DNA from: a virus
Virus record (IMG/VR): IMGVR_UViG_3300045960_000114
Coordinates: 96,001-160,000 of that record
Length of the DNA stretch: 64,000 nt
Direction: 5' to 3' (one strand)
The position numbers were made by a program, and so were the translations under genes. This document shows, one piece after another, positions 3,882 through 31,352 of this stretch; position 1 is the stretch's first letter; each line of letters opens with the position of its first letter. Below the pieces are notes generated by a model. It searched no databases. It was not told where the DNA came from and saw only the letters and a list, made by a program, of their open reading frames with translations.

Positions 3882-4940
3882 ATGTCGTTCATACTGTTCA
3901 CGGACGCCCACGTCTGCATGCAGGCGTGGCGTGACATGCCGGGCGTTCGGGGCGACGCGTACCAGTCACTGTCACAGGTGATTCGGTACGCCGTCGACCA
4001 CAAGGTCGAAGCGGTCGTGGACGGCGGGGATCTGTTTGATGCCCAGCCCACGGCGTACGACGCCCACTTCATGCTTTCCGCTGTCGAGGAGCTGAAGCGG
4101 GCTGGCATCAAGGTGTACAGCATCCAGGGACAGCACGCCCGCGACAGGATTATATCGTGGGCATGCATCGACCCCTACGTAACCAATCTGGAAGCCGCCG
4201 GGCCAGTCACACTAGCCGACGGCAAGATTGTCATGCAGGGATTCGACCACAGTCCTGCGGAAGAGCTGAAGGCCAAGCTGGAGTCGGGGCTCAAGCCGGA
4301 GACAAACGTCCTCGTCCTTCACCAGAAGGCGACAGGTGTCACGCCTGGCATGGGTGCCGACTTCGATCCCGAGTGGGTGGATTGTCACGTCAGGCTGGTG
4401 CTGATGGGCGACTACCACAAGGCGATCAACTGGTCACGCCCGTGTCCTCCGCCACTCCCGCCGATGCAGTTGATGTACAACGGCAGTTTGTGCATGCAGG
4501 CCATTGACGAATGCCCGGAGAAGTTTTTCACGGTGGTTTACGACGACCTGTCATATGAACGGGTGAAGCTGACTACGCGTCCGTTCATGGCGTCGATGGT
4601 GCAGTCACAGGAGCAGTTGGACAAGCTGCTGGAACAGCTGAAGTCGTTCCCTGCGGAGGGGATGCTCGTGGTCAAGTTCGACACGCGCATCAAGGACGTA
4701 GAGGACCTGCTGCGCAAGCGGCGCCCCGACATCAACATCAAGGCGCGCCCGCTGCCGATCGTGGTGGCGGACACGCCGGTCCCTCTGCCGGGCTCGATCT
4801 CGTTGGAGTCGTGTCTTCGCGTCCTGGCCGACCCGGCAAAGGATGCCGAGCTGTATTCCTTTGCCAAGCAGTTGATCGATTCCCGTGACGTTCGCGGGAC
4901 GCTTCAGGAGTGGCGCGGGAAGTTTCTGCAAGACGTTTGA
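3882..4940 (+). CDS. sbcD: Mre11/SbcD-like metallophosphoesterase nuclease
   Basis: FTDAH, GGDLFD, GQH and GDYH motifs. The Rad50-like partner lies 2 kb downstream. Confidence 0.88.
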   Translation: MSFILFTDAHVCMQAWRDMPGVRGDAYQSLSQVIRYAVDHKVEAVVDGGDLFDAQPTAYDAHFMLSAVEELKRAGIKVYSIQGQHARDRIISWACIDPYVTNLEAAGPVTLADGKIVMQGFDHSPAEELKAKLESGLKPETNVLVLHQKATGVTPGMGADFDPEWVDCHVRLVLMGDYHKAINWSRPCPPPLPPMQLMYNGSLCMQAIDECPEKFFTVVYDDLSYERVKLTTRPFMASMVQSQEQLDKLLEQLKSFPAEGMLVVKFDTRIKDVEDLLRKRRPDINIKARPLPIVVADTPVPLPGSISLESCLRVLADPAKDAELYSFAKQLIDSRDVRGTLQEWRGKFLQDV

Positions 4941-6941: not shown

Positions 6942-9044
6942 TTGAAGCTCAAGAAACTCAGTCTGGTGAACTACTGTCAGCATGCCGAGCGTGAAGATGT
7001 GTTCGCGCCGGGCATCACGCTGATCCACGGACCCAACGGTTCCGGCAAGTCGAATCTGGTGAAGTCGATCTTCCGGCTGCTGACGGGCATCAGCCTTAAC
7101 GGGGTCAATGCGGATGATATTCGTGTTGGTACCGAGAAGGGACACGGTGAGTTGGAGTTTGAAGTGAATGGTACTCCTGGGGTCATCAAACGGTTCTGGG
7201 ATACCAGCCGCTGCAACTTGACGTTTGGTGACAGGAAATTCAAAACAGCCACTGAAGTAGATCGCGTGATCTACGAGATCATCGGCGTGCAGCCGAAGGT
7301 CCTGAGCGAGATGGTCTTCGTGATGCAGGGCGCTATTGATGGCATCCTGTTCGGAAAGCCGGCGGAGCGCGCGAAGTCGTTCCAGGTCCTGTTCAACACG
7401 GCAGGGCTTGAGACGGTGCGCGACCTGCTGCATGAGGAGATGGAGAAGGTCGTCATTGTCAGCCGCAAGGAGCTAATCGACCAGCTCAAGCAGCAGCTCG
7501 CGACTACGGTCGAGGAGCCTCTGCGGAAGGCCGAGGACGAGTTGAAGTCCGTCAAGTTGAACGTGATGGACGAGAAGGCGTACACGAAGTGCAGCAACCT
7601 GATCGCCAATCACGAGAACTTCATCGCCTCCATGGAGGCGCAGAAGCGGCTGGCTGACGCGGTGATGTCCATCGAAGGAGAGCTGGGAAGGGCCAGCACC
7701 GAGGTCAGGGAACTGACTGACTCCGTTCTGGGGTTGGAGTCGTCGCTCAAGGACGTGGATGCGGACTACCGCGCGGCAAACGCGCGCATCGCTGCGTCGC
7801 ATATGGCGGCGGCGCGCAAGGCGCACGTTGCGCACCTACGGTCCATCATCGAGAACGCCGAGAAGGTGCTGCTGCTTCCCGAGCCGACGAAGCCGATTAC
7901 CAAGGACGAGCTGGACAAGCTGCGGGCTGAGTACGACGTGCTCATGCACAAGTTGCGCTCGGCCAATTCCATCGTGACGACGTTCAACTCAGGCGGTGGC
8001 GTTTGTCCGACCTGCACGCAGACTGTGCCGCAGTTCCTCGTCGAGCAGCAGAAGGCGCTGCTGGAGATGTTCGGCTCCAAGGCGCTGGATATGAAACGCA
8101 AGCTGGAGGATTCCGAGCTTGCGTTCGCCAGGTACCTGTCGGATTCGGAGCATCTGAGGGCGCGCAAGGAGGAGTTGAAGCGCGCACGCGATACAGCAGC
8201 TGCCACGTTGACCCAGCATCCCGACATGAGGGTGGAGGCTACCCAGGCTGATGTGGAGTTGGTCGCGTTGGTCAACGAGCTGAACGGATCATTGAATGAG
8301 TCACGAGGCAAGCTGGCGGCGGCGAAGGCCAACGTCGAGCAGCTGACCAAGCGGCTGGAGGATGCGCGGACGGCTGGATCGGACAACCTGGCGCGTTCGG
8401 GCGAACGTGCGAGCGACACCGACTACAAGGCGTGCAAGGACTCGCTCGAGTTGCACAACAAGAGCAGGGACAGGGTGGCGCGGTTGGAAGGTACCGTCTT
8501 GGCGCTTGAGTCTCAGCGCAAGACAATCCTTGATTCGGTCGAGAAGCACGAGAAGGAGGAGAGTGGGCTGGCCAAGGTGCGCGAGTGGCGCGGCCTGTTG
8601 GAACGGACCCGCATTCTCCTGCATCGGGACAACCTTCCGAATCTCGTGGCACGCTCGTATCTGGGCGGCATCAACGCGGCGATCGGCAAGTACCTGGAGA
8701 TGTTCAACTCCAAGTTCCAGGCAGTCATCAAAGACGACCTGTCGGTTGAGTGCCACTTCGCTGGCGGGTTCAAGCAGCCGTCTGAGCGGTTGTCAGGTGG
8801 TCAGCGCGTGATGCTTGGACTGGCCTTCCGGTTTGCCGTGTACGACCTCTTCACGGCGACGCTGGGTGTGCTGGTACTCGATGAGCCGACTGTGTTCTTG
8901 GACGATGCTAATGTCGACCGCGTGATAGAGCTGTTGGAGCACGTCAAGGCGTACTCACGCACGTCGAACCTGCAGGTGCTGGTGGTCAGTCACGAATCGA
9001 AGCTGATCCCAGTTTTCGACCACGTAATCAAAGTTGGCGATTAA
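6942..9044 (+). CDS. sbcC: Rad50/SbcC-like SMC ATPase
   Basis: Walker A GPNGSGKS, coiled coils, zinc hook CPTC, signature LSGGQ, Walker B LDEP, H-loop VSH. Confidence 0.93.
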   Translation: MKLKKLSLVNYCQHAEREDVFAPGITLIHGPNGSGKSNLVKSIFRLLTGISLNGVNADDIRVGTEKGHGELEFEVNGTPGVIKRFWDTSRCNLTFGDRKFKTATEVDRVIYEIIGVQPKVLSEMVFVMQGAIDGILFGKPAERAKSFQVLFNTAGLETVRDLLHEEMEKVVIVSRKELIDQLKQQLATTVEEPLRKAEDELKSVKLNVMDEKAYTKCSNLIANHENFIASMEAQKRLADAVMSIEGELGRASTEVRELTDSVLGLESSLKDVDADYRAANARIAASHMAAARKAHVAHLRSIIENAEKVLLLPEPTKPITKDELDKLRAEYDVLMHKLRSANSIVTTFNSGGGVCPTCTQTVPQFLVEQQKALLEMFGSKALDMKRKLEDSELAFARYLSDSEHLRARKEELKRARDTAAATLTQHPDMRVEATQADVELVALVNELNGSLNESRGKLAAAKANVEQLTKRLEDARTAGSDNLARSGERASDTDYKACKDSLELHNKSRDRVARLEGTVLALESQRKTILDSVEKHEKEESGLAKVREWRGLLERTRILLHRDNLPNLVARSYLGGINAAIGKYLEMFNSKFQAVIKDDLSVECHFAGGFKQPSERLSGGQRVMLGLAFRFAVYDLFTATLGVLVLDEPTVFLDDANVDRVIELLEHVKAYSRTSNLQVLVVSHESKLIPVFDHVIKVGD

Positions 9045-9383: not shown

Positions 9384-9393
9384 CTTTAAAGCT

Positions 9394-9558
9394 GGTCGCA
9401 CACCGTGGAGCGGCGTCCCTGGAAACCCCTCCTCCACAACCGTTCTGCGGTGTGCGGCCTTTGAACTTGCTGTGACGACGTGATCCCAACATGGACATTG
9501 GGGATCACGTTCGGTTGTAAAAAGTCCATGTGTCGTATGGACCGCCCCGGCTGGGGCG
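9394..9558 (+). ncRNA. Structured non-coding element (20-bp hairpin, H-type pseudoknot, small hairpin)
   Basis: Pairings by eye: 9394-9413 with 9440-9459; 9478-9487 with 9501-9510; loop 9489-9496 with 9524-9531; 9543-9558. Confidence 0.55.
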
Positions 9559-9610
9559 CATTACCGTTGCTGTCGGAACTCTTTTCTTTTGCTATGCCCA
9601 GGAGGAACCC

Positions 9611-9925
9611 ATGGCCATCGACTGGAAGCAGTTCGACGCGGTTGGTACCGACCTGCTGGACTTGATCAAGCCTTACCTGCCCGCGCTCGCGCGTGAGGGG
9701 CCGGATGTGTTTGATGGGTTTATCAAGAATCTGATCAAGAAGGACTGGGGGGCGATCAGCACGGACATGTACCGGCGCATGACACCTGCGGAGCGGCTGG
9801 AGCTGGATAAGCAGGTCATTGACGGTGCGTACAAAGCCGCGCAGGCACGGTACAGGCAGATTCAGCTGGAGAAGGAAATCCTGATGAAGATCGTGATCCG
9901 GCTGGCTCTGACGGTAATTCCCTGA
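9611..9925 (+). CDS. Hypothetical helical protein
   Basis: GGAGG RBS before ATG 9611. Its stop is coupled to the next start. Confidence 0.75.
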   Translation: MAIDWKQFDAVGTDLLDLIKPYLPALAREGPDVFDGFIKNLIKKDWGAISTDMYRRMTPAERLELDKQVIDGAYKAAQARYRQIQLEKEILMKIVIRLALTVIP

Positions 9926-10476
9926 TGGAAGTCTCGGCCAAGATACGATTCATCACGCCATGCCTCGGTAACGAGCGGCGCGACCAACGCGACCTGATGC
10001 TGCGCAACAGCGACGGGTATGTCATCTTCTTGCAGAGCTGGTGGCGCTGCTCGCTCAGGTACGCTGCCAACGCGATCGGGCGCTGGCAGCGTGACGTGGA
10101 CGAGGTGCAGGCCGATCCGGTCGTTCGAGGGGAGACGGGCATTTACAGGCGGTTCTGGAACAGCAATCAGTATAAGGAGCACGAATCATTTTTGGCGGGC
10201 TCCGTTGTGGAGGTGAACTTCCTGCTTCCCTCCACGCTGGGTATTGAGGAGTTCAAAAAGATCCTGGTGACGGCTGGGAAGTACGCGGGGCTGTCGCCTT
10301 ATGGGTACAAGCAGGATTTTGGGAGGTTTGAGTTGCTGGAGCTGGTTAGGAGGGTCCATGTCCAAGCTGAAAGCCATCATCACGCGGTGGGGCAATCTGA
10401 TCAAGGTTCAGCCGCCGTTCAAGGAACTGTTGGCCAAGAAGTTGTCGTACAACCGCAGGGAACAGACGGGCGGTGA
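9925..10476 (+). CDS. RAMP/Cas7(Csm3/Csf2)-like protein, orphan
   Basis: IRFITPCLG, DxMLRNSDGYVIFLQSWWRCSLRYAA and a C-terminal Gly loop AGKYAGLSPYGYKQDFGRF. The layout resembles RAMP proteins. Confidence 0.5.
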   Translation: MEVSAKIRFITPCLGNERRDQRDLMLRNSDGYVIFLQSWWRCSLRYAANAIGRWQRDVDEVQADPVVRGETGIYRRFWNSNQYKEHESFLAGSVVEVNFLLPSTLGIEEFKKILVTAGKYAGLSPYGYKQDFGRFELLELVRRVHVQAESHHHAVGQSDQGSAAVQGTVGQEVVVQPQGTDGR

Positions 10477-11812
10477 TTCGAAGTCGGTCACGGTGACGCC
10501 CACATATCTCTTCCGCGAAGACGAAGACGGGCTGGTGGTTCCTGCCGGGTTGCTTGACCGTGTCCTTGTCACGCTTCGGATGTGCGACGTGGACGTCGAG
10601 TACCACGACCTGCGCAAACCGAAGCTGGGTGAGCCACACTTCGAGAACGTGGATCTGCTACGCGACGGGCAGGAGGAGGTTATTGCCCAGATCATTGGCA
10701 AAGACATGGGCATCATCTGGGCGCCGACTGGCATAGGCAAGAGCTTCATCATCCGCCAGATCCCGAAGCTGTGGCCCGAAGCGCGGATCCTTATCTCCTG
10801 CGCGTCCAAGGACATCGTGAAGCAGACCTACGCGGAACTGCTGGAGATGTTCTCGTCGGCGGCTGTCGGGTTCGTGGGCGACGGGCGCAACGAATCGGAC
10901 CGGCGCATCGTCTGCTGCGTGGACAAGTCGTTGCTGAAGGTCAACCCCAGCAAGTTCGACATACTGATCTACGATGAGGTCCACCGCGCGGCGGCGAAGA
11001 ACACCGCTGAGATCATTGCTTCGATCCAGGTGGAGCGCATCTATGGATTCAGTGCCAGCCCGTTTGGCCGGTCGGACCGGGCTGATCTCGAGACCCATGC
11101 GATGTTCGGGCCGGTCATCTGCAAGATCAACTACGAGGAGGCTGAGGCTTCAGGTTCCGTGGTCCCCGTCGATGTGTGGGTGTCATCGGCTGCCGATCTG
11201 CCGCAGGTCAGCAAGTCGACCACGACGGCGCTGGAGCGGTGGGGGCTATGGCGTAATGAGGAGCGCAATCGCCGGTTGCGCGAGGCCATTGAGTGGGTAT
11301 TTGCCACGTTCGGCGAGGACATGCAGACCCTGGTGACGGTGAAGACTGTTGAGCATGCGGTGTGTTTGAATTGTGCGCTGGAAGGGCTTGGCTTCGCACT
11401 GGTCTATGCCAACATGGACGGAGAGATGCGCGAACGCTGGGAGAAGATGCGCATGATTCCCAAAGGCGTTCATCCGATCACGTCTGATACGCGCGAACAG
11501 ATGCGCAAGGCTTTCCGCAGCGGTGAGCTGCGTCGTGCGATCGCTACTGGTGTATGGGGAACAGGCGTTGACTTCCCCAGGCTCAACGTCCTCGTACGTG
11601 CTGATGGCGCTGGTGGCACCATTCCAAACACGCAGTTGCCCGGACGTGTTACGCGTCGTTCTGATGGCAAGACGGTGGGCATCGTCATCGACATAGATGA
11701 CAGGTTCAATCAGACGTTGTCCAACCGCTATGAGAGGCGGTCAAGGGACTACCGTAAACGTGGTTGGCAGGTACGTTACATCAAAGCACCTGCCGCCTAC
11801 CTTCAGGGGTAA
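10358..11812 (+). CDS. Superfamily 2 helicase (UvsW/XPB-like)
   Basis: APTGIGKS, DEVH, SAS, TGVWGTGVDFP, QLPGRVTR. Confidence 0.9.
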   Translation: MSKLKAIITRWGNLIKVQPPFKELLAKKLSYNRREQTGGDSKSVTVTPTYLFREDEDGLVVPAGLLDRVLVTLRMCDVDVEYHDLRKPKLGEPHFENVDLLRDGQEEVIAQIIGKDMGIIWAPTGIGKSFIIRQIPKLWPEARILISCASKDIVKQTYAELLEMFSSAAVGFVGDGRNESDRRIVCCVDKSLLKVNPSKFDILIYDEVHRAAAKNTAEIIASIQVERIYGFSASPFGRSDRADLETHAMFGPVICKINYEEAEASGSVVPVDVWVSSAADLPQVSKSTTTALERWGLWRNEERNRRLREAIEWVFATFGEDMQTLVTVKTVEHAVCLNCALEGLGFALVYANMDGEMRERWEKMRMIPKGVHPITSDTREQMRKAFRSGELRRAIATGVWGTGVDFPRLNVLVRADGAGGTIPNTQLPGRVTRRSDGKTVGIVIDIDDRFNQTLSNRYERRSRDYRKRGWQVRYIKAPAAYLQG

Positions 11813-11815
11813 GCC

Positions 11816-12373
11816 ATGGATCATGAGGAAAAGGTCTCTCTCTACGTGGAGAGGCTGATGGATGCGTATGTCCGTTTGCGCAGGAAGTACCGGCCCACCT
11901 TCGTCAAGGTGAACAGTCCGAACGTCCGGCTGTGGCGCAGCTGTGCCACCGCGCTGATTGAGATGAACCTCAATCCGTATCAGTTCGCACAGTACGTTTT
12001 CGATCTGGTCACCGAGCGGCGACCGGATGTTTACGAGTCGGAGATTACATCGGTGAAGTTGGCCAATGCGCACGCGCAAGACCGGCCCATGCTTAAGGAG
12101 AAGCTGAAGCTGCAGGTGAGCCTGCAGGCCGCCAAGATCAAGAATCACCTGAAGCTGGGTGAACCGCTGGCGGACATTTTGATGAACGAGACGTATGGCT
12201 TATTGCTGCCTGTTCGTTTCGCCACGGCATGGTCGGAGGGGCTCAAGGACTTGGCTGAGCACCTGCGACCTGAGGCCGAAGAGGCAATCATCTTTGAGCC
12301 GTATTACTTGGAACTGCTCAAGGATTACTTACCGGAGGACATTCACAATGTCGTCAGAGTACATACGTCTTAG
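11816..12373 (+). CDS. Hypothetical protein between the helicases (possible loader)
   Basis: Continuous ORF. The function is guessed from position only. Confidence 0.65.
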   Translation: MDHEEKVSLYVERLMDAYVRLRRKYRPTFVKVNSPNVRLWRSCATALIEMNLNPYQFAQYVFDLVTERRPDVYESEITSVKLANAHAQDRPMLKEKLKLQVSLQAAKIKNHLKLGEPLADILMNETYGLLLPVRFATAWSEGLKDLAEHLRPEAEEAIIFEPYYLELLKDYLPEDIHNVVRVHTS

Positions 12374-13841
12374 GAATTCGTTCTCTCGGCTGGAAATGGA
12401 CATGCTTCTGTGCCATGTGGTGCGCTGTACCCCGGTCATGCGCGCCGCGTTCGGGCGGCTGAAGGTAGAGCAGTTCATCCCTGACGCGGAGTTCGTCCAC
12501 CAGTTGCTGTGGGCGACCGCCTCCGAGTTCTACGACGCGCACAAGAAGGGAATCCCCGAGTCGGCCATGCGGGCGATCCTGGACAAGAAGAAAGAGGACA
12601 ATCCGGATTATTTCGGTGGGAATATCTACGACAACATTCTGGCTACGGTGATCTTCATCTACGGGCTGCCGGAGCAGGACCTGGTCCCGAGTTACGGCGT
12701 AGAACTGGTCAAGCGGTTCGTGGGGGAACGCCAGATTGGCGTCCAGTTCATCGGCGCAGCGCAGTCTGGTGTCCTTCAGCGGCAGCATTTGTGGGAGATG
12801 TTGGATACGGCACAGCAGTTGGACGCGCTTACGCCGCAGCCAACGATCTTGCCATTCAGCTCGCGCTCTGGCCCGCTGCTGGGCGTCAAGCCTCGCGAAC
12901 CCACGGGCGTCACATTCCTTGACGTGTTGATGAACGGTGGCCCGCGCAAGGGCGAGTTGTACGGTTTCCTGGCTCCGTCAGGTGGTGGTAAGACTACCCT
13001 GGCTAACCAGATTGCCATCAACTACGCCATGAGTGGGAAGCACATCATGGTCTTCACTTACGAGCAGCCGCCGGATGCGGAGTACATGATCCCCGTTTAC
13101 GCGTGTGCCGCGCAGACGGACCGGGGCAAGTTCGAGCGCATCGTTAATTTCTCAGGAGACTTATCTTTCTTGGACGAGAAAGAGCGCGAGCGATTCGAGC
13201 GCATGGGCAAGATCATCGGCGAGAACCTGCATTATCGGGATATGACTTCGGGCTCGCGGTATGGGGCTGAGGAGATCAAATCGCTGGTGGAGCAGGAGCA
13301 GCAGCAGAGCAAGATCAAGATCGACGCGATCATCGTCGACTGGTTCTGGCCGATGGTGACACGATCCTACGACCGGCTGGAGCTGGGTCGCGGGAAGAAG
13401 AAGGAAGTCCGCGGTTACGCCCAGGATCAGATTGACCGGCTCAAGGTCATCTGCATGGAGTTGGGTGTCTGGGGTTGGCTGACTCATCAGCTAAAGCCTG
13501 ATGCCGCCAAGAAGAACAAGATCATGGACTTCGAGGATGCAGCCGAGCTGAAGTCATTTGCGTGGTACATGAACGGCTGTTTCTGCTTGTCGAAGATGGA
13601 CGACGAGTGTCTGGCGCCGTTGAAATTTTCCAAGGCGCGTAGCCATAAGGCCGATCACACCGTGGTCAAGTTGCTGGGCAACATCGCCACGTTTGTCGAT
13701 GCTGCCAACATGGTGTTTGATCCTCGCCGGAAGAAGTGGGTGGAGAAGGGGAAGGAGAATGCGGTGCCCAAAGCCAACGAGTCAGACAAAACGCCCACTC
13801 GCGTTGACTACGAGGGTAGGGTGGGGGCGGTGCGAACATGA
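12348..13841 (+). CDS. dnaB: DnaB-like replicative helicase
   Basis: LAPSGGGKTT, FTYEQ, IIVDW, LTHQL. Adjacent to the primase. Confidence 0.85.
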   Translation: MSSEYIRLRNSFSRLEMDMLLCHVVRCTPVMRAAFGRLKVEQFIPDAEFVHQLLWATASEFYDAHKKGIPESAMRAILDKKKEDNPDYFGGNIYDNILATVIFIYGLPEQDLVPSYGVELVKRFVGERQIGVQFIGAAQSGVLQRQHLWEMLDTAQQLDALTPQPTILPFSSRSGPLLGVKPREPTGVTFLDVLMNGGPRKGELYGFLAPSGGGKTTLANQIAINYAMSGKHIMVFTYEQPPDAEYMIPVYACAAQTDRGKFERIVNFSGDLSFLDEKERERFERMGKIIGENLHYRDMTSGSRYGAEEIKSLVEQEQQQSKIKIDAIIVDWFWPMVTRSYDRLELGRGKKKEVRGYAQDQIDRLKVICMELGVWGWLTHQLKPDAAKKNKIMDFEDAAELKSFAWYMNGCFCLSKMDDECLAPLKFSKARSHKADHTVVKLLGNIATFVDAANMVFDPRRKKWVEKGKENAVPKANESDKTPTRVDYEGRVGAVRT

Positions 13842-14851
13842 GCGAAGTCAAGCCCCTGAATCCGAACCTGTACATCATGTTGCGCAAGCGGTTCGGTAAG
13901 GTGAAGATCTCCAATGAAGGTGAGCGTGCAGTCAGCCAGACCGTACCTGACATTTTCTCGTCTAAGAAACTGAAGACGCATGACCTGCAGACCGGCGAGT
14001 ATTACCGTGTCTGCTGCCCTGCGTGTGGTGATCGTCGATACCGGCTCTACATCAACTACAGGTGGAACACGGGTGAGAACACGATCTTCACCAAGTACCT
14101 GGCTTGCTGCTTCAACGAGGGCTGTGATCTGCGGTTCCTCGACGAAGAAATCAAGCCTTACATTGGGGGCAAACTGATCCTGTCGGACTTCGGCTATGAA
14201 CCTCCGCCGAAGTTCAAGGAGATCACGTTGCCCGGCAAGTGTGTTCCACTCAACGAACTCGGTGATTCCCACCCGGCCACGAAGTATGTGGTGGGGCGGC
14301 GCTTTTCGCCGAAATACCTGTTTGAGGCGTGGGGTGTCCAGTTCTGTACAGAACATCCCAGCGACTTGATCAGGAACCGGTTGGTCATTCCTTTCTACTG
14401 GGAGGGCAAGCTGGTCGGCTGGCAGACGCGCGCCATCGTGCCGCATGCGGACCCCAAGTATTACACCATGCCGGGGCTGCAGAAGGCGAACATGTTGTTC
14501 AATGGCGATCGGGCGCGGCTGTTCAAGCTGGGTGTGATCGTAGAAGGCGTGTTCGATGCCTTTCGTGTTGGGACTGCGGCTGTTGCCTTGTTGGGTACCT
14601 CGGTAAGCATGATCCAGCGCAGGCTGATCCATGCTTACTGGGGCAATGGTGGCATCTGCATCATGCTGGATTCGGATGCGGTGGACAAGATGGAGAAGGC
14701 CACGAACCTGTTCACGCCCAGTGCTTTCAAGCTGGGTGTGTTCTCTGTGGAATTGCCGCAGGGTAAGGATCCGGCAGACATGTCACGTAACGGCGTGTGG
14801 AAGGAGATAGGAAAGCGTGCAGCAGCTCTACGAATACCAGTTGCCGGCTAA
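13838..14851 (+). CDS. DNA primase (Zn-binding plus TOPRIM)
   Basis: CCPACGD...C, GWQTR, PKYY, VEGVFDA, MLDSD, GKDPAD. Confidence 0.88.
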   Translation: MSEVKPLNPNLYIMLRKRFGKVKISNEGERAVSQTVPDIFSSKKLKTHDLQTGEYYRVCCPACGDRRYRLYINYRWNTGENTIFTKYLACCFNEGCDLRFLDEEIKPYIGGKLILSDFGYEPPPKFKEITLPGKCVPLNELGDSHPATKYVVGRRFSPKYLFEAWGVQFCTEHPSDLIRNRLVIPFYWEGKLVGWQTRAIVPHADPKYYTMPGLQKANMLFNGDRARLFKLGVIVEGVFDAFRVGTAAVALLGTSVSMIQRRLIHAYWGNGGICIMLDSDAVDKMEKATNLFTPSAFKLGVFSVELPQGKDPADMSRNGVWKEIGKRAAALRIPVAG

Positions 14852-17753
14852 TTTCGAACTGGACCCGGATGCGCTGGCTATGGCACCGGTTGCTGGGAGT
14901 ACGGAAGAACCAAGCATCTTTGACCGGTATTGTGCTCAACTCGGCTACCCCAGCGCCGAGATACTGGCCAAGGTCATGCTTTTGAATCCCGTGTTCATGC
15001 CGGTGGTCGACAAGAAGGGAAATTCGACACAGCCTGTCCTCTGGTTACCAGGGCATACGTACGGGAATGCGGAACGTGGACCGATCAGGCATTACGACAT
15101 CATGGCTGTTGGTAAGATGCCTGGTCCAGAGGAGTTAGAGCGGCAGCTCAATTTCGCCGGCCCTGCCGGGAAGTTGCTGCGGGACATTGCGAACAGTCTT
15201 GGTTACCACCAGCTCAACAACTGGTACTTCACCAACATTGTGCGCTTCATACCGCCGACGGTTGGGAAGGCGGCGCTGCCAAACCTCTACGTGGAAATCT
15301 GCTTCCCTTTGCTGCTACAGGAGATAGCGCTGGTAAAGCCGCGTATTTTGGTGCTGATGGGCGCAGATGCTGTCAAGGCTGTGGCTGGCAAGCACACCAC
15401 CTTAAGCAACATGCGTTCGTCGGTCTTTGTGCTGCGCGGGCCGCGCGGGATCAGGCAGCCGATGGAGAACTACGCCCTACTGGAAGACAAGCCTGAGGAT
15501 GCTACCCTGGTTTGCGCTACAATCCATCCTGCGGCGGTTTTGCGCGAGAATGGGCTCATGGACGGTCTGACGGCGGATTTGACCCGCATTCGCGACCTGC
15601 ACATCGGCAGGGACCCAACAGTGACGGACCTCAAGTCGCGTGACTACTTCTACGTCAGGACACATGAAGAGCTCAGGGGGGTGGTAGATGCCATCTTCAC
15701 GCAGACCGGCCAGATCCCGATTGCGGTAGACTGTGAAACAGGCGGCAGAGATTTCCGAACTGGGCTGGTTCGTTCGATCCAATTCTCCTGGGCGCCGCGC
15801 ACGGCCTGTGTGGTGATTCTGGCCAATACGGGTGGTGAGCAGGCGCAGAGTTCAAGCGAACGGGCACTGATGGTAAACGAGCTGCGTCGGCTCTTCACGG
15901 ATCCGCGCGCGCAGCTGATCTTCCACAACGGGCGGTTTGAAGCCAAGTGGCTTGGTCATCTGGGGTTGGAGATGATAAACCGGTTCTATTTCGACACCAT
16001 GCTGGCCGACCATTGTCTTAACGCGAACGCTGAACATGGGTTGGAGGCGTTGTCAATCCGTTACACGAACATGGGCCGTTACGACTGGGAGCTGGCTGAA
16101 TGGGTCAAGGCGCATGGCGGTATGGCCATGGTCAAGGAGCGTGGCTATCTGGACGTGCCGGAAGACATCCTGCTGCCTTATGCGGCCTGTGATACGGACT
16201 GCACGTGGCGCTGTTACCGCGTGCTGAGTGAGACGCTGGAGCGGCCTGAGAACAAACAACTGCGGGACCTGTTCTTCAATGTCATCATGCCGTGCAACGC
16301 GCCGCTGCATGAGATGGAACGGTTGGGCGTGCTGGTGGACAGGGACAGGCTGGTTGAGCTGACCCATCGGTTCCATGAGCGCAAGGAACGGTTGGTCCAG
16401 CACATCAGGATGCGCGTGGGTGATGATTCCTTCAACCCACGGAGCACGCAGCAGAAGGCGAAGCTGCTCTTTGAGAACCTGGGGTTACCCCCCTACAAGA
16501 CGACGGGCAAGCCCTCCAGGATGTGGGTGGACCTGACTCCGTCGGAGGTGGTGAACTCGACGCCGGCGGTTGACCTCGAGACGTTGGAGGCAATACAGGC
16601 AAACGATAAGACTGGGATTGTTCAACTGCTGCATGACTTTGCGGTTGTGGACCAGGTCTGCAAGCAGTTCCTGACGTATGAAGACGGTGTTGAAGGTGGG
16701 CTGATCGATTACATCTCAAGTGACGGACGTATCCACACCAGCTTCTCCCAGACGTCTGAAACCGGGCGGGAGAAGAGTTCGGATCCAAATTGTCAGAATT
16801 TACCGAAGGCACAGGAAGAAGAACTGAGGCGCATCCTCGGCTCGGACCTGCCATCCATACGAAGCGCGTTCATCGCGCCTCAGGGAAGCGTAATCATCGA
16901 GGCTGATTACAAGTCGGCTGAGATCTTCACGCTTGGGTATCTGTCGAACTGTCCCAAACTGATTAGAGACGCGAGTAGTGATCTGCATGCTCGTGGTGCT
17001 GTGAACTACTTTGGTGCGCCCAGATGGAAGGGATTTGAGGAAGGTAAGAAACCGCCAGGCGACTGGAAGGAACAGTATGGTGCCATGCGTGTGGCGGCGA
17101 AAACCATCAACTTCGGCATCGCGTATCAGCGCGGTGCCAAAGCAGTTGCACGGGCGATCATCGCCGAGACGGGTGGTAAGTTGTGTCCCTCGCCTGAGGA
17201 GGCACAGGAGTTCATTGACGGGTTCTACAACACGTACCCGGAAGTAAGGGATTACGTGGATTACTGTAAGACGAGCGTGGTACAACCGGGCTACGTGTCG
17301 AACGCTTACGGAAGGCGTCGACGCTTCATGGCCCAGTCAACTGATGAACGAGGCCAGTTGGCTGCGTTTGAGCGAGAAGCCGTGAACATGCCGATCCAAG
17401 GGACGGTGGCTGATACGCTTAACGCTGCTATTTCCAACATGTTCAGGTGGAGATCAATGTATGCGGGTCGTTGCAACTACCGCATTATACTGGTTGTCCA
17501 CGACGCTGTTCTCATAGAGGTTCCAGGTGAGGAGGCGCATATAGTTTACAATGAAGTTCTTCCGCAGTGCATGACTACCATGGCGGTGGTACCTCCCTGG
17601 TATCCATGGCCGCATACAATCAGAAAATCCGAACCTTTCACCCTTGACGTTGATCGAGAAGTGTATATAAGGTGGGGCGTCAAAGCGACCAAAGAAGAGT
17701 TGGTTGCTCGTGGCGTTAGCACAGAACACGCAGAACTGATGACTAAGCACTAA
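14817..17753 (+). CDS. polA: Family A DNA polymerase with N-terminal uracil-DNA-glycosylase-like domain and 3'-5' exonuclease (start uncertain)
   Basis: UDG-like: FAGPAGKLL, TNIV, TIHPAAVLR. Exonuclease: DCE, HNGRFE, YAACD. Polymerase: ADYKSAE, RVAAKTINFGIAY, VHDA. Confidence 0.93.
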   Translation: MQQLYEYQLPANFELDPDALAMAPVAGSTEEPSIFDRYCAQLGYPSAEILAKVMLLNPVFMPVVDKKGNSTQPVLWLPGHTYGNAERGPIRHYDIMAVGKMPGPEELERQLNFAGPAGKLLRDIANSLGYHQLNNWYFTNIVRFIPPTVGKAALPNLYVEICFPLLLQEIALVKPRILVLMGADAVKAVAGKHTTLSNMRSSVFVLRGPRGIRQPMENYALLEDKPEDATLVCATIHPAAVLRENGLMDGLTADLTRIRDLHIGRDPTVTDLKSRDYFYVRTHEELRGVVDAIFTQTGQIPIAVDCETGGRDFRTGLVRSIQFSWAPRTACVVILANTGGEQAQSSSERALMVNELRRLFTDPRAQLIFHNGRFEAKWLGHLGLEMINRFYFDTMLADHCLNANAEHGLEALSIRYTNMGRYDWELAEWVKAHGGMAMVKERGYLDVPEDILLPYAACDTDCTWRCYRVLSETLERPENKQLRDLFFNVIMPCNAPLHEMERLGVLVDRDRLVELTHRFHERKERLVQHIRMRVGDDSFNPRSTQQKAKLLFENLGLPPYKTTGKPSRMWVDLTPSEVVNSTPAVDLETLEAIQANDKTGIVQLLHDFAVVDQVCKQFLTYEDGVEGGLIDYISSDGRIHTSFSQTSETGREKSSDPNCQNLPKAQEEELRRILGSDLPSIRSAFIAPQGSVIIEADYKSAEIFTLGYLSNCPKLIRDASSDLHARGAVNYFGAPRWKGFEEGKKPPGDWKEQYGAMRVAAKTINFGIAYQRGAKAVARAIIAETGGKLCPSPEEAQEFIDGFYNTYPEVRDYVDYCKTSVVQPGYVSNAYGRRRRFMAQSTDERGQLAAFEREAVNMPIQGTVADTLNAAISNMFRWRSMYAGRCNYRIILVVHDAVLIEVPGEEAHIVYNEVLPQCMTTMAVVPPWYPWPHTIRKSEPFTLDVDREVYIRWGVKATKEELVARGVSTEHAELMTKH

Positions 17754-17852
17754 GTACCAAGGACTGACTGACGACGGACATCGAGAATAGCGGGAAACGA
17801 GTGGTACCTCGTACCATAGTTTCTAATTACCCATGGTGAAAGGAGACTTACC

Positions 17853-19232
17853 ATGTCTGAGGAGTCCTACCGTAGTTCTGTCCCATCGACTGGCGGCTTG
17901 GAGCGGTTTGCTGGCTTCCTGTTGTTGAAGACCAACGTACCGCACCAGGTCTATGCACCGAGGGGTGAGAAGGGACGCGCGCTCTTCCGGATCCTACCTG
18001 AGATCCGTGAAGGCGCCGAGCTCCCGTGGCGAATGACAGCCGACCCTTGCGATTTCAGCGGCTGGATCAAGGCTGAGAAGATGATCCGCATGGCGGGCGC
18101 GAACAACAAGTTTACTGCCCTTTGCCGTGTCAAGGGTCAGGACAACAGGTACGCTGGCCCGATCCAGCGGTTTGTCGACACACTCTACCGCGCGTTCAAA
18201 GAAGCGCCGACTTCCCTTCCACCCGAATGGGCACGCTGGAAGGATAAGAGCGGCGCGTTGCCTGGCATTGAGTATGTTGGACTCATCCAGTGCATGCTGT
18301 TCGAGAACGGCGGTTACGTTCATAAGGACAAGGTGACCGGCAAGTACAAGCCTGTCAGCCCGGTCGTGTACATCCTACCCAAGACGGCCCGCATGTCGCT
18401 GGAGACGCTCTGCAACGTGGAGGTTGATGGATACACTGGCAGCGCCGACGATTACAACCAGCGATATAAGGTGGGCGATCCGTGTGGAACGAAGGATGGC
18501 CGGCTGATGCAGCTGGTGTACTACCCCGGAAGTGGGACGACGCTTTCCCACTACGAGGCTGCCGTTGTGCAGCCGTGTCCCATTTCCCCGGAGATGGCTA
18601 AAGCCTACAAACCGTGGGGTGACATCCTGAACTATCTCACGGAAGAGGAGCAGATGGAGTTGCTCGTCAACCACTTCCCGCCCGAGGCCGTCGATTTCGT
18701 GTTCGGGCAGACGAAGCTCGCGGACATGCTTCCCAAGAACGTGCGTGGGAAGTGGATGTCGCGCGTGCAGGTTGGAAACCCTTACGGTCAGTATCCGCCG
18801 CAGCAGCAGTTGCCGCCCGGTTACTATCCGCCGCATGGTGTTCCGCCTGGAATGCAGTTTGGACCGGCGCCTGGCATGATACCTGGTATGCCACCTGGCA
18901 TGATGCCGCAGGCCATGCCTGCCATGCCGCAGGTAATGTCGGCTGCACCGATGCCTTCCATGCCAGCTGCCACACCACCGCCACCGGTAACCCCGAGGGG
19001 CGCACCCTCTGCCGGTGGTGGTGAGTATGACTTCTCTCTGGATGGCGATGCGGGGGGAGGGGATGATAGCATCCCTTTTGACAGTAACGTCAACCCACCC
19101 GTGACGGCTCCGGCGGCAAGCCAGGACTTCCAGCCGCCCCAGAGCGACGCGACCAAGTTGGCGAAACAACGGCTGGCGGAAGCGCAGGCGCTTCTCCGTC
19201 AGAAAGCCGCACAGCAACCCCCACAGCAGTAA
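17853..19232 (+). CDS. Putative single-stranded DNA-binding/recombination protein with Pro/Met-rich linker
   Basis: Lies between pol and recA, with FRILP near the N-terminus and an acidic DDSIPF motif. Inferred. Confidence 0.55.
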   Translation: MSEESYRSSVPSTGGLERFAGFLLLKTNVPHQVYAPRGEKGRALFRILPEIREGAELPWRMTADPCDFSGWIKAEKMIRMAGANNKFTALCRVKGQDNRYAGPIQRFVDTLYRAFKEAPTSLPPEWARWKDKSGALPGIEYVGLIQCMLFENGGYVHKDKVTGKYKPVSPVVYILPKTARMSLETLCNVEVDGYTGSADDYNQRYKVGDPCGTKDGRLMQLVYYPGSGTTLSHYEAAVVQPCPISPEMAKAYKPWGDILNYLTEEEQMELLVNHFPPEAVDFVFGQTKLADMLPKNVRGKWMSRVQVGNPYGQYPPQQQLPPGYYPPHGVPPGMQFGPAPGMIPGMPPGMMPQAMPAMPQVMSAAPMPSMPAATPPPPVTPRGAPSAGGGEYDFSLDGDAGGGDDSIPFDSNVNPPVTAPAASQDFQPPQSDATKLAKQRLAEAQALLRQKAAQQPPQQ

Positions 19233-19240
19233 CATAGTCG

Positions 19241-19275
19241 AGCAGCCTGCCTCCGTCATGCGGGGGCAGGCTGTT
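19241..19275 (+). terminator. Stem-loop, probable terminator
   Basis: 15-bp stem with two G-U pairs and a 5-nt loop. The U-tract is weak. Confidence 0.5.
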
Positions 19276-19294
19276 CATTTGATAGAGGTGCCGA

Positions 19295-20653
19295 ATGGCT
19301 CAATCCAACTTCCTTACTGCATCGCTTGATGCGCAGAAACGTCAGCACGGTGAGGGCAATGTATTCCTGGCCAGCGAAGGTTCCAAGCTGTCCGTTGGCG
19401 TACCGTTGCCGTCGTTCTCACTGATGTACCTGATGGATTTGGACGTATTGCCGCTGGGTCGGATCCTGGGCGTTGCGGGACCGCCGGCGTCACAGAAGTC
19501 GTCTTTCGCGTTTGAGGTCGTCCGGTGGCTGATGGCTGCCGACGGCGAGGCCAAGCTGGTTGAATGCGAAGGCGGCAAGTACAGCCCTAAGCTGATGCGC
19601 TCCATCATCGGCGATAAGGGCGTTGATGAACATTTCATCATCGGCAGGTCGGACACCATCGAAGAGGCACAGGGGCATCTTTCCTCTGCGTTGGATCTCT
19701 ACGAGGCGAATCCGGAAGCCGGCATGAAGGCCATCTCCGCGTTGGTGGTTGACAGTCTTGTTGGCGTGACCAGCGAAGCGGTGATGAAGAAGCACGTGGA
19801 CGAAGGGCACGCGTCGCCTGAGGTTGCCATTCAGGCCAAGGGTTGGTCTCCGTTCTTCAAGAGCTACAGCACGCGCATTGCTGGTTGGCCGATCGTCGCG
19901 GTGGTTGTCAACCACCTCAAGACGAAGGTCAATACGTCTGGGCATGGCGGTCCGCCCGGAAGGTACACCCCTGGGGGCGATGCGCAGTCATTCTACGCTT
20001 CGCTGTATCTGTGGATGCAGCGGATCGCGTCGTCGGAGCGTGTCACCATCATGCGTAATGGTGAGCGCATTAACCGGTTCACGGAGACGCGCCGGCTGAA
20101 ACTCGAGCTGCAGAAGAGTTCGCTCGGTACGGATGGCAGGGACATCTTTGTCAACTTCTCGTGGTACCATGACGAGGAGGGACAGCAGATATCCTACTTC
20201 GATTGGAACGCGTCCACCTGTGAGCTGCTGCTTGGCCTACAGGGCAGACACGGCTACATCGACAAGCAGCCGGCGGACCTGTGCAACCTGATCGACATCG
20301 AGGTCAGCAAGGGCACCGGTGACAAGAAGTACACCAGTCAGGCGTTGGGTCTGGAGGGCGTGTCGGACAGTGAGATCGGTGCAGCCATCGACAATGATCC
20401 GCAGTGGATCGACCGGCTCTGCAAGTTCTTCAACATCACCCGGCATAACAAGTGGGCTGGTGCCATGCCGGAGTTGGAGAAGAAGGTGAAGCAGAAGAAA
20501 GGCAGGGTGGAGGTCGTGGCTGGCGCGTTGGCGGACGTGGGGAAGGCGGCAGAGAAGGCGTTGGCAACTCTGCAAGACCCTACAGAATCCGTACCGGACA
20601 AACCCAGGAAACGCGGTAAGGATAAACCGCCAGAAGGCTTAGAGACCGTTTGA
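19295..20653 (+). CDS. recA: RecA/UvsX-like recombinase
   Basis: AGPPASQKSS (variant P-loop), VVDSL, VVNHLK, TPGGDAQSFYAS. Confidence 0.88.
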   Translation: MAQSNFLTASLDAQKRQHGEGNVFLASEGSKLSVGVPLPSFSLMYLMDLDVLPLGRILGVAGPPASQKSSFAFEVVRWLMAADGEAKLVECEGGKYSPKLMRSIIGDKGVDEHFIIGRSDTIEEAQGHLSSALDLYEANPEAGMKAISALVVDSLVGVTSEAVMKKHVDEGHASPEVAIQAKGWSPFFKSYSTRIAGWPIVAVVVNHLKTKVNTSGHGGPPGRYTPGGDAQSFYASLYLWMQRIASSERVTIMRNGERINRFTETRRLKLELQKSSLGTDGRDIFVNFSWYHDEEGQQISYFDWNASTCELLLGLQGRHGYIDKQPADLCNLIDIEVSKGTGDKKYTSQALGLEGVSDSEIGAAIDNDPQWIDRLCKFFNITRHNKWAGAMPELEKKVKQKKGRVEVVAGALADVGKAAEKALATLQDPTESVPDKPRKRGKDKPPEGLETV

Positions 20654-31038: not shown

Positions 31039-31100
31039 CTGGTGGGAAGGACATGTAGCCCGGGTCGAGGCGGCGATGGATCGGCTTGGCTTGAGAAAGG

Positions 31101-31352
31101 ATGTGGTGGATGGAGAAGCGGGAACTGGTGCTGGGCAGCCTGGTAACGGGCCGCCCAGCAATCCTGTACTTACCGTACGAGATCACGGTAGACGAGGTTA
31201 CGAAGCTGGAAAATTTTGTTGCGCATATCCGCTACGAAGCGGAGCAACGGGCGAAGGAGAAGTTGGATAACCTGAAGGCTGCACGGGGGAGTGCGGCCAA
31301 GGAAGAGACCAGACGGGTTGAACCCATACGGGTGGCGCCGTCACTGAAATAG
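31101..31352 (+). CDS. Small hypothetical protein
   Basis: GAAAGG RBS. Confidence 0.6.
   Translation: MWWMEKRELVLGSLVTGRPAILYLPYEITVDEVTKLENFVAHIRYEAEQRAKEKLDNLKAARGSAAKEETRRVEPIRVAPSLK

Follow-up and report, generated by a model that had tools for sequence, protein, structure and literature searches.

The RAMP gene and its surroundings

The stretch of DNA analysed here (hereafter the window) comprises 64,000 nt of the viral record IMGVR_UViG_3300045960_000114, from a large uncultured phage, corresponding to bases 96,001-160,000 of a 185,265-bp sequence that is 88% complete according to CheckV. Within it, a 183-aa open reading frame (ORF) encodes a putative RAMP protein and overlaps the gene for an SF2 helicase. 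In every class 1 CRISPR effector, RAMPs are the backbone that holds the RNA. An earlier description of this DNA, made from the sequence alone (the original prediction), had proposed an orphan RAMP/Cas7-like gene coupled to the helicase; the ORF and the motifs that it quoted are present, and the helicase start lies inside the 3′ end of the ORF (Table 1). Upstream of the RAMP gene lie SbcD, two unknown ORFs, SbcC, a small lipoprotein-like ORF and a 107-aa ORF, in this order, and downstream of it the SF2 helicase, an ORF of 185 aa, a DnaB-like helicase, a Toprim primase, a UDG-PolA fusion, an ORF of 459 aa and a RecA-like protein.

The ORF is a real gene, far beyond chance, with 30 close homologues (E down to 1e-109) and 203 cluster representatives at E<1e-3 in an exhaustive phmmer search, all of them 88-260 aa long. 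None of the 203 representatives is named and none has a Pfam or PHROG match. The RAMP protein itself matched nothing in PHROGs, NCBIfam or PADLOC, and Pfam searches returned nothing at E≤1, either for this protein or for the 139 members of its family.

Conservation is limited to residues 1-141, and the tail that follows is variable in length and missing in many homologues. The helicase ATG lies in another frame, 119 nt inside the 3′ end of the RAMP ORF, and is preceded by the sequence AGGAGGG at 10348-10354; alignment with 12 orthologous helicases favoured this start over one at 10301. Overlap of the two genes is the rule in the subclade of this phage, and in most close relatives the RAMP ORF ends 1 to ~146 nt beyond the helicase start. 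The tail is probably a by-product of this overlap, its patchy similarity most likely reflecting the helicase N-terminus coded in the overlapping frame. On the other side of the gene, the 107-aa ORF shares an operon with the RAMP here, yet it is not a conserved partner; it has no family match, and its only homologue was found in a single related locus (L006), where it is not adjacent to the RAMP gene.

Between the lipoprotein-like ORF and the 107-aa ORF, positions 9384-9601 are predicted to adopt a strong fold (minimum free energy -88 kcal/mol, z -4.2) that includes four hairpins, one of them of 20 bp. The original prediction had suggested that the RAMP might be loaded with this RNA. As a RAMP ligand the element was rejected, being unique to one genome and not conserved: it has no Rfam match, neither the related loci nor the rest of the genome contain anything similar, and most relatives have a terminator and a promoter between SbcC and the RAMP gene. 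The region may be a terminator and leader.

Table 1. Positions of the RAMP gene, its neighbours and features of related loci (window positions unless a locus or genome is named)
Feature	Position	Strand	Description or basis
RAMP ORF	9925..10476	+	183 aa; motifs RFITPCLGNERRDQRDLMLRNSDG..IFLQSWWRCSLRYAANA and GKYAGLSPYGYKQDFGRF
RAMP conserved core, aa 1-141	9925..10347	+	AlphaFold2 model, structure matches, family alignments
RAMP C-terminal tail, non-conserved	10348..10476	+	overlaps helicase ribosome-binding site and start
XPB/Rad25-like SF2 helicase	10358..11812	+	484 aa; Pfam ResIII, Helicase_C; PHROG 16
Small upstream ORF	9602..9925	+	107 aa; TGA stop overlaps RAMP ATG (TGATG)
SbcD	3882-4940	+	Pfam/PHROG
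SbcC	6942-9044	+	Pfam/PHROG
Downstream replication genes	11816..20653	+	Pfam, synteny
G003 VIPR-like locus	L117:8301-9947 (G003:66,300-67,946)		249-aa Vipr-like P0318, glycine loop GLGQWRNAGYGAF, then array
G003 second short array	L118:6606-6794		~40 kb away
500-640-aa protein of the distant RAMP subclade	L009:6242-7762, L011:6310-7872, L008:4134-5645, L013:5308-7227		

The predicted structure is that of a minimal RAMP

An AlphaFold2 model based on a 139-sequence alignment reached a pLDDT of 96.2 and a pTM of 0.89, and contains the beta-alpha-beta-beta-alpha-beta core of an RRM (ferredoxin-like) fold, with strands at residues 2-9, 72-77, 83-89, 94-100 and 135-142 and helices at residues 37-51 and 107-121. 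Along the core, beta1 with its TPCLG motif is followed by alpha1 (LQSWWR..YAA), a beta-hairpin, a further strand, alpha2, a 13-residue glycine loop (AGKYAGLSPYGYKQDFGRF) and beta4. Foldseek comparison of the model with the PDB gave 137 matches at E<1e-3, the top ones being type VII Cas7, Csm3 and Cas7-11, and Cas7 proteins were also the top matches of VIA-align; with both programs the matches were overwhelmingly RAMPs. Among predicted viral structures (BFVD), the sole significant matches were three or four phage RAMPs of 194-275 aa. The RAMP/Cas7-like fold, for which the original prediction had proposed a Foldseek comparison as a check, was therefore called correctly, given the AlphaFold2 model and its PDB matches, and the product of the ORF is, as modelled, a minimal single-RRM RAMP with a Cas7-group fold.

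The glycine-rich loop between alpha2 and beta4 comprises residues 118-135 (GKYAGLSPYGYKQDFGRF; residues 122-134 in the model). Here G118, G122 and G133 are conserved in 98-100% of the 139 members, and S124, P125 and F135 are also conserved. Elsewhere, conservation extends to F9, L14 and G15 in beta1, W39 and W40 at the start of alpha1, and R76, H86, E87 and G92 in the hairpin. The family-invariant residues are those of the glycine loop, the alpha1 start (W39, W40) and the hairpin (R76, H86, E87), and the core is basic, with a median pI of 9.2 across the family.

In the predicted model the short beta-hairpin (72-77 and 83-89), which bears R76, H86 and E87, is a candidate for the RNA-contacting thumb of RAMPs. 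These three residues would be candidates for catalysis if the protein were a metal-independent RNA endonuclease of the Cas6 or Cas5d kind, or a target RNase resembling Csm3, that processes primers, R-loop RNA or transcripts within the replication block; we regard such an activity as improbable.

Relationship to viral Vipr proteins

Vipr is the RAMP of VIPR (Viral Interference Programmable Repeat) systems, where it polymerizes on vrRNAs composed of GGY/NN pentamers and steers binding to DNA (bioRxiv 10.64898/2026.04.26.720920, 10.64898/2026.04.26.720927). In the Vipr of Escherichia phage SUSP1, the GGY motif is read by residues H17, R138, D177, W178 and R179 (bioRxiv 10.64898/2026.04.26.720927). 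This protein (36pp) was the best PDB match of the RAMP family profile, at E 0.035. A profile of type II Vipr was assembled from 47 sequences, and the SUSP1 vipr gene and its four vrRNAs were located in KT454805. Alignment of the RAMP family with this profile by hhalign gave a probability of 94.3% and E 1e-7 over just 41 columns, covering alpha2, the glycine loop and beta4. When the Vipr profile was run over the whole phage, the sole match was the RAMP glycine loop (window 10225-10335, E 0.007). No CRISPR RAMP family was detectable by sequence for the RAMP family.

Some of the residues that contact GGY could be followed through the hhalign block. W178 corresponds to Y126, retaining the stacking aromatic, and both D177 and R179 are replaced, the former by P125 (proline in 95%) and the latter by G127. 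H17 corresponds to N16, a variable position, when the N-terminal motifs outside the hhalign block are read by eye, and the equivalence of R138 to R76 is uncertain. Additionally, a genuine, array-linked Vipr of a related phage (P0318, described below) matched type II Vipr at E 1.3e-3 and the RAMP family at E 2.5e-3. P0318 is about equally far from both, and the RAMP family therefore lies within the range of divergence seen among Vipr-type proteins. These alignments place the RAMP and the viral Vipr proteins together in one deep lineage.

Guide arrays were not detected

The array criterion was taken from the VIPR preprint (at least 4 YNNGG units), and the variants NNNGG, YNNNG and NNNNG were also scanned. 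Further scans used sliding counts of GGY or GG with period 5, tested each base singly for the same period, scored columns by their information and looked for enrichment of all 16 dinucleotides at a spacing of 5. In the window and in the whole 185-kb genome, none of these scans revealed a vrRNA-like pentamer array above chance or above other periods, and the same scripts recovered the positive controls, which were the SUSP1 vrRNAs (all four) and the degenerate array of the related phage G003. No arrays were found nearby in 13 viral loci (YNNGG/NNNGG scan) or in 29 metagenome loci (all-dinucleotide spacing-5 scan), and none lay near the RAMP gene in any of 40 evaluable related loci. Among fuller genomes of relatives, the YNNGG pattern showed no excess over chance in G001, G002, G004 and G005 (all at least 90% complete), nor did the GT-N3 pattern reveal anything in G001, G002 and G004.

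Scanning the 185-kb genome with k-mers and TRF identified no CRISPR-like repeats. The whole genome contained no second RAMP, no PF03787 match and no Rfam family except one tRNA; among the scanned neighbours there was no other cas-like gene, nor was there any Cas5, Cas6 or Csf1 partner. The orphan status of the gene thus held up, also in the search of the full record for mini-arrays that the original prediction had proposed, and the RAMP locus is not a canonical VIPR or CRISPR system.

Two candidate arrays were examined and rejected. The best period-5 run of G in the genome (window 31058-31162, 16/18 positions) was considered as a degenerate vrRNA and attributed to chance, with equal runs at periods 4, 7 and 8; it is part intergenic and part within an 83-aa ORF that has a ribosome-binding site. 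A lone GT-period match at genome position 175,879 falls inside a repetitive coding region.

A separate, genuine VIPR-like locus was observed in the 210.7-kb genome of G003, the phage to which locus L008 belongs, at a distance of ~124 kb from the replication RAMP of that phage. There, ~880 nt of NGT-NN pentamers directly follow the P0318 gene, with 17 GT-5-GT pairs per 100 nt versus at most 5 at other spacings, and a second short array lies further away (Table 1). Two distinct genes, one for a replication-block RAMP and one for an array-linked Vipr, thus occur together in a single phage.

These results bear on whether the RAMP could be the effector of a helicase-associated VIPR system, its pentamer-coded guides lying in the missing 12% of the genome, being too degenerate to detect or coming from another element, and the helicase serving as the Vap accessory on DNA targets specified by RNA. 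Such a system would be in keeping with the sequence kinship to Vipr and with the VIPR preprint, in which types III-V have nuclease or helicase accessories and some types have NNNGG, YNNNG or NNNNG repeats that were detected only through Evo2 scoring; the large NGT-NN array of G003, the incompleteness of the viral record and the period-5 G run point the same way. However, no detector found an array in the genome, in G001, G002 and G004 with two patterns or in G005 with one, and in ~40 loci none stands beside the RAMP. Moreover, the array of G003 directly follows that phage's own 249-aa Vipr, 124 kb from the replication RAMP, the G run is no better than those at periods 4, 7 and 8 and overlaps an ORF, and the GGY-contact residues D177 and R179 are not conserved. 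We consider a VIPR system with hidden guides unlikely; if it were real, VIPR would be extended to an architecture with far-away or trans guides.

Linkage and co-divergence with an XPB-like helicase

The helicase has a conserved N-terminal domain of ~95 aa, and among proteins of solved structure it is closest to archaeal XPB/Rad25 (E 2e-16) and not to DinG or UvsW. Thirteen viral contigs, up to 211 kb long, share the gene order SbcD-SbcC-...-RAMP-helicase-...-primase-PolA, and they include those of a distant RAMP subfamily that is only 23-33% identical to the window RAMP. The coupling to the helicase that the original prediction had noted was general: the helicase gene comes immediately after the RAMP gene, on the same strand, in all 14 non-redundant viral loci (distance -101 to +246 nt) and in all 26 evaluable metagenome loci (25 within 400 nt), the distance over all loci being -146 to +246 nt with a single exception at +566 nt. 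Pairwise identities of the RAMP and of the helicase were correlated (Pearson 0.86) and had similar means (0.34 and 0.35). Comparing loci L002-L004, the RAMP showed ~45% identity, versus 32-39% for SbcC, the helicase, the primase and PolA. A fixed core position and co-divergence with the helicase are unlike what would be expected of a conflict system, which further argues against a VIPR effector with hidden guides.

The same observations bear on a role in counter-defence. The original prediction had raised the possibility of a Cas7 mimic acting as an anti-CRISPR, and more broadly such a decoy of Cas7 or Vipr might soak up CRISPR RNAs (crRNAs) of the host or vrRNAs of rival phages, or poison their effector filaments. 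A Cas7-like fold without partners would suit this role, and phages are known to contest VIPR guides, as described in a preprint (bioRxiv 10.64898/2026.10.15.759431). A decoy is nevertheless a poor match for a gene that keeps its place in the replication block, is strictly tied to one helicase and diverges along with it, for a RAMP conservation that equals or exceeds that of the neighbours, and for the loss of the GGY-contact residues D177 and R179; we regard it as very improbable.

On a tree of the helicases (31 rows), RAMP-positive lineages occur on both sides of the deepest split, and gain and loss of the RAMP require at least 3 changes of state, with 5 in the most parsimonious reconstruction. 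This distribution fits an old acquisition of the RAMP followed by several losses, on a midpoint-rooted tree that does not prove the direction of change.

The RAMP family was not found in 185,579 prokaryote species genomes, tblastn gave no match in 50,697 GenBank phages, and a profile search of a 5.8-billion-protein set revealed no new remote families; in the protein atlas, only unnamed viral clusters matched the family. Absence from prokaryote genomes contrasts with VIPR systems, which are mostly proviral or chromosomal according to the VIPR preprint, and it too counts against a hidden-guide VIPR. The hosts of the gene form a clade of phages of roughly 185-210 kb, in which the RAMP is inherited vertically within the replication block.

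Other genes of the replication block

Several further observations concern the genes around the RAMP. In three RAMP-less loci (L025, L031, L040), the gene upstream of the helicase resembles a ThiF/E1-type enzyme with a GxGxxG motif, and these genes recall a ubiquitin-like cassette at 24.4-29.4 kb of the window. In the distant RAMP subclade, a conserved 500-640-aa protein with no Pfam match is encoded between SbcC and the RAMP (Table 1); as a conserved third partner it was rejected, having no homologue in the genome of the window phage. The DNA polymerase at window 14817-17753 is a fusion of UDG, 3′-5′ exonuclease and PolA. In three relatives the PolA match is broken by ~0.5-0.9 kb, at about residue 659 of the window PolA (L005 and L006) or downstream of that point (L004), and an intein or homing-endonuclease insert is the suggested cause.

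No PF00436 single-stranded DNA-binding protein (SSB) was found in the 185-kb record, and the conserved ORFs at 11816-12373 and 17853-19232 could be candidates for a loader or an SSB. Despite this absence, the RAMP is unlikely to be the SSB of the phage, in that sister phages lose it or swap in unrelated small proteins.

A proposed role without guides

We tentatively favour, with a little under even weight, the explanation that the gene encodes a Vipr-family RAMP that has no guide array, binds single-stranded nucleic acid and works with the adjacent helicase. The conserved surfaces of the RAMP, alpha1 and the glycine loop, are the RNA-holding surfaces of Cas7 and Vipr. Through them, the protein would bind single-stranded nucleic acid without GGY-type specificity, and it might oligomerize in doing so, like Cas7 and Vipr. 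Its ligand could be single-stranded DNA or else RNA, the latter in R-loops, primers or transcripts. The RAMP may present or stabilize such a substrate for the XPB-like helicase during phage DNA replication or recombination, and the sites of action could be R-loops, primers, forks or recombination intermediates; cooperation with the helicase might be physical or functional.

Several points weigh against this explanation. Firstly, the record is 88% complete and an array could sit in the missing part. Secondly, VIPR arrays can be as degenerate as NNNNG and their authors used a language model, such that pattern scans could miss arrays of this kind. The related phage G003 does have a pentamer array, though beside its own separate Vipr gene. 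The analysis shows the fold, the kinship with Vipr, the lack of detectable arrays and the linkage and co-divergence with the helicase; nucleic-acid binding, the ligand, oligomerization and cooperation or contact with the helicase are predicted. Finally, 15/31 orthologous helicases have no RAMP in the upstream sequence at hand, which in 3 of these 15 loci (L017, L028, L034) amounts to just ~0.4-1.1 kb; at that position the sister phages carry unrelated small genes, or nothing after SbcC. Because orthologous helicases occur in these RAMP-less phages, the helicase can do without the RAMP.

If guide-free binding is correct, the RAMP would serve as a testable model of what RAMPs do outside immunity, possibly as an ancestral function, and also of how the RAMP-helicase pairs of type IV CRISPR and helicase-linked VIPR systems could have arisen. 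Vipr proteins have been argued to be ancestral to CRISPR RAMPs (2026 VIPR preprints). A more far-reaching version, doubtful at present, is that guide-free RAMPs act natively in replication or recombination, for example by coating RNA or single-stranded DNA at forks or R-loops for an XPB-like translocase, and that the Vipr/Cas7 lineage is rooted in such an accessory of viral replication and not in defence or conflict. The locus would then offer a living example of RAMP work before or outside programmable interference.

Comparison with known systems

The RAMP/Vipr lineage was known as of 2026; the variant seen here is marked by the 141-aa core, the lack of a detectable array, the place in a replication block and the XPB-like partner. 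No description of such a variant was found in the searched literature and databases, and it may fall under the helicase-bearing type of the VIPR preprint, whose supplementary tables were outside the search.

Among Cas7-group RAMPs (Csm3, Cmr4, type VII Cas7, the domains of Cas7-11, and Csf2), identity to the RAMP is ~10-15%, and the RAMP has no PF03787 match. It is also much smaller than these proteins and lacks their insertions, and it stands without crRNA, array, Cas5, Cas10 or Cas11.

The original prediction had drawn a parallel with type IV CRISPR systems, which is only an analogy, in so far as a RAMP is paired with a helicase. In type IV-A, however, the Csf2 filament works with DinG, an Fe-S helicase of the DinG/XPD kind, whereas the helicase here is XPB/Rad25-like, and its match to the PADLOC typeIV_DinG model (21 bits) is confined to the P-loop. 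The RAMP locus also lacks Csf1, Cas5, Cas6 and an array, and it is set among phage replication genes rather than on a plasmid.

Type II Vipr of SUSP1 is likewise a phage-encoded, minimal single-RRM RAMP without a CRISPR array or cas genes. The two proteins share the block of alpha2, glycine loop and beta4, AG..G[ILV].[PDQ][YW]...[FY]G[RA]F, have a similar beta1 with a T/P.L motif when compared by eye, and keep the base-stacking aromatic (W178 in Vipr, Y126 in the RAMP). The vipr gene adjoins a gene for an accessory that acts on DNA, and the XPB-like helicase beside the RAMP may be its counterpart. In contrast to Vipr (about 190-250 aa), the RAMP core has 141 aa, its similarity is confined to ~41 columns in which the equivalents of D177 and R179 are replaced, and no GGY/NN or related pentamer array lies adjacent to it or elsewhere in the genome. 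While Vipr belongs to a two-gene accessory locus, the RAMP, absent from prokaryote genomes, is part of a conserved replication block.

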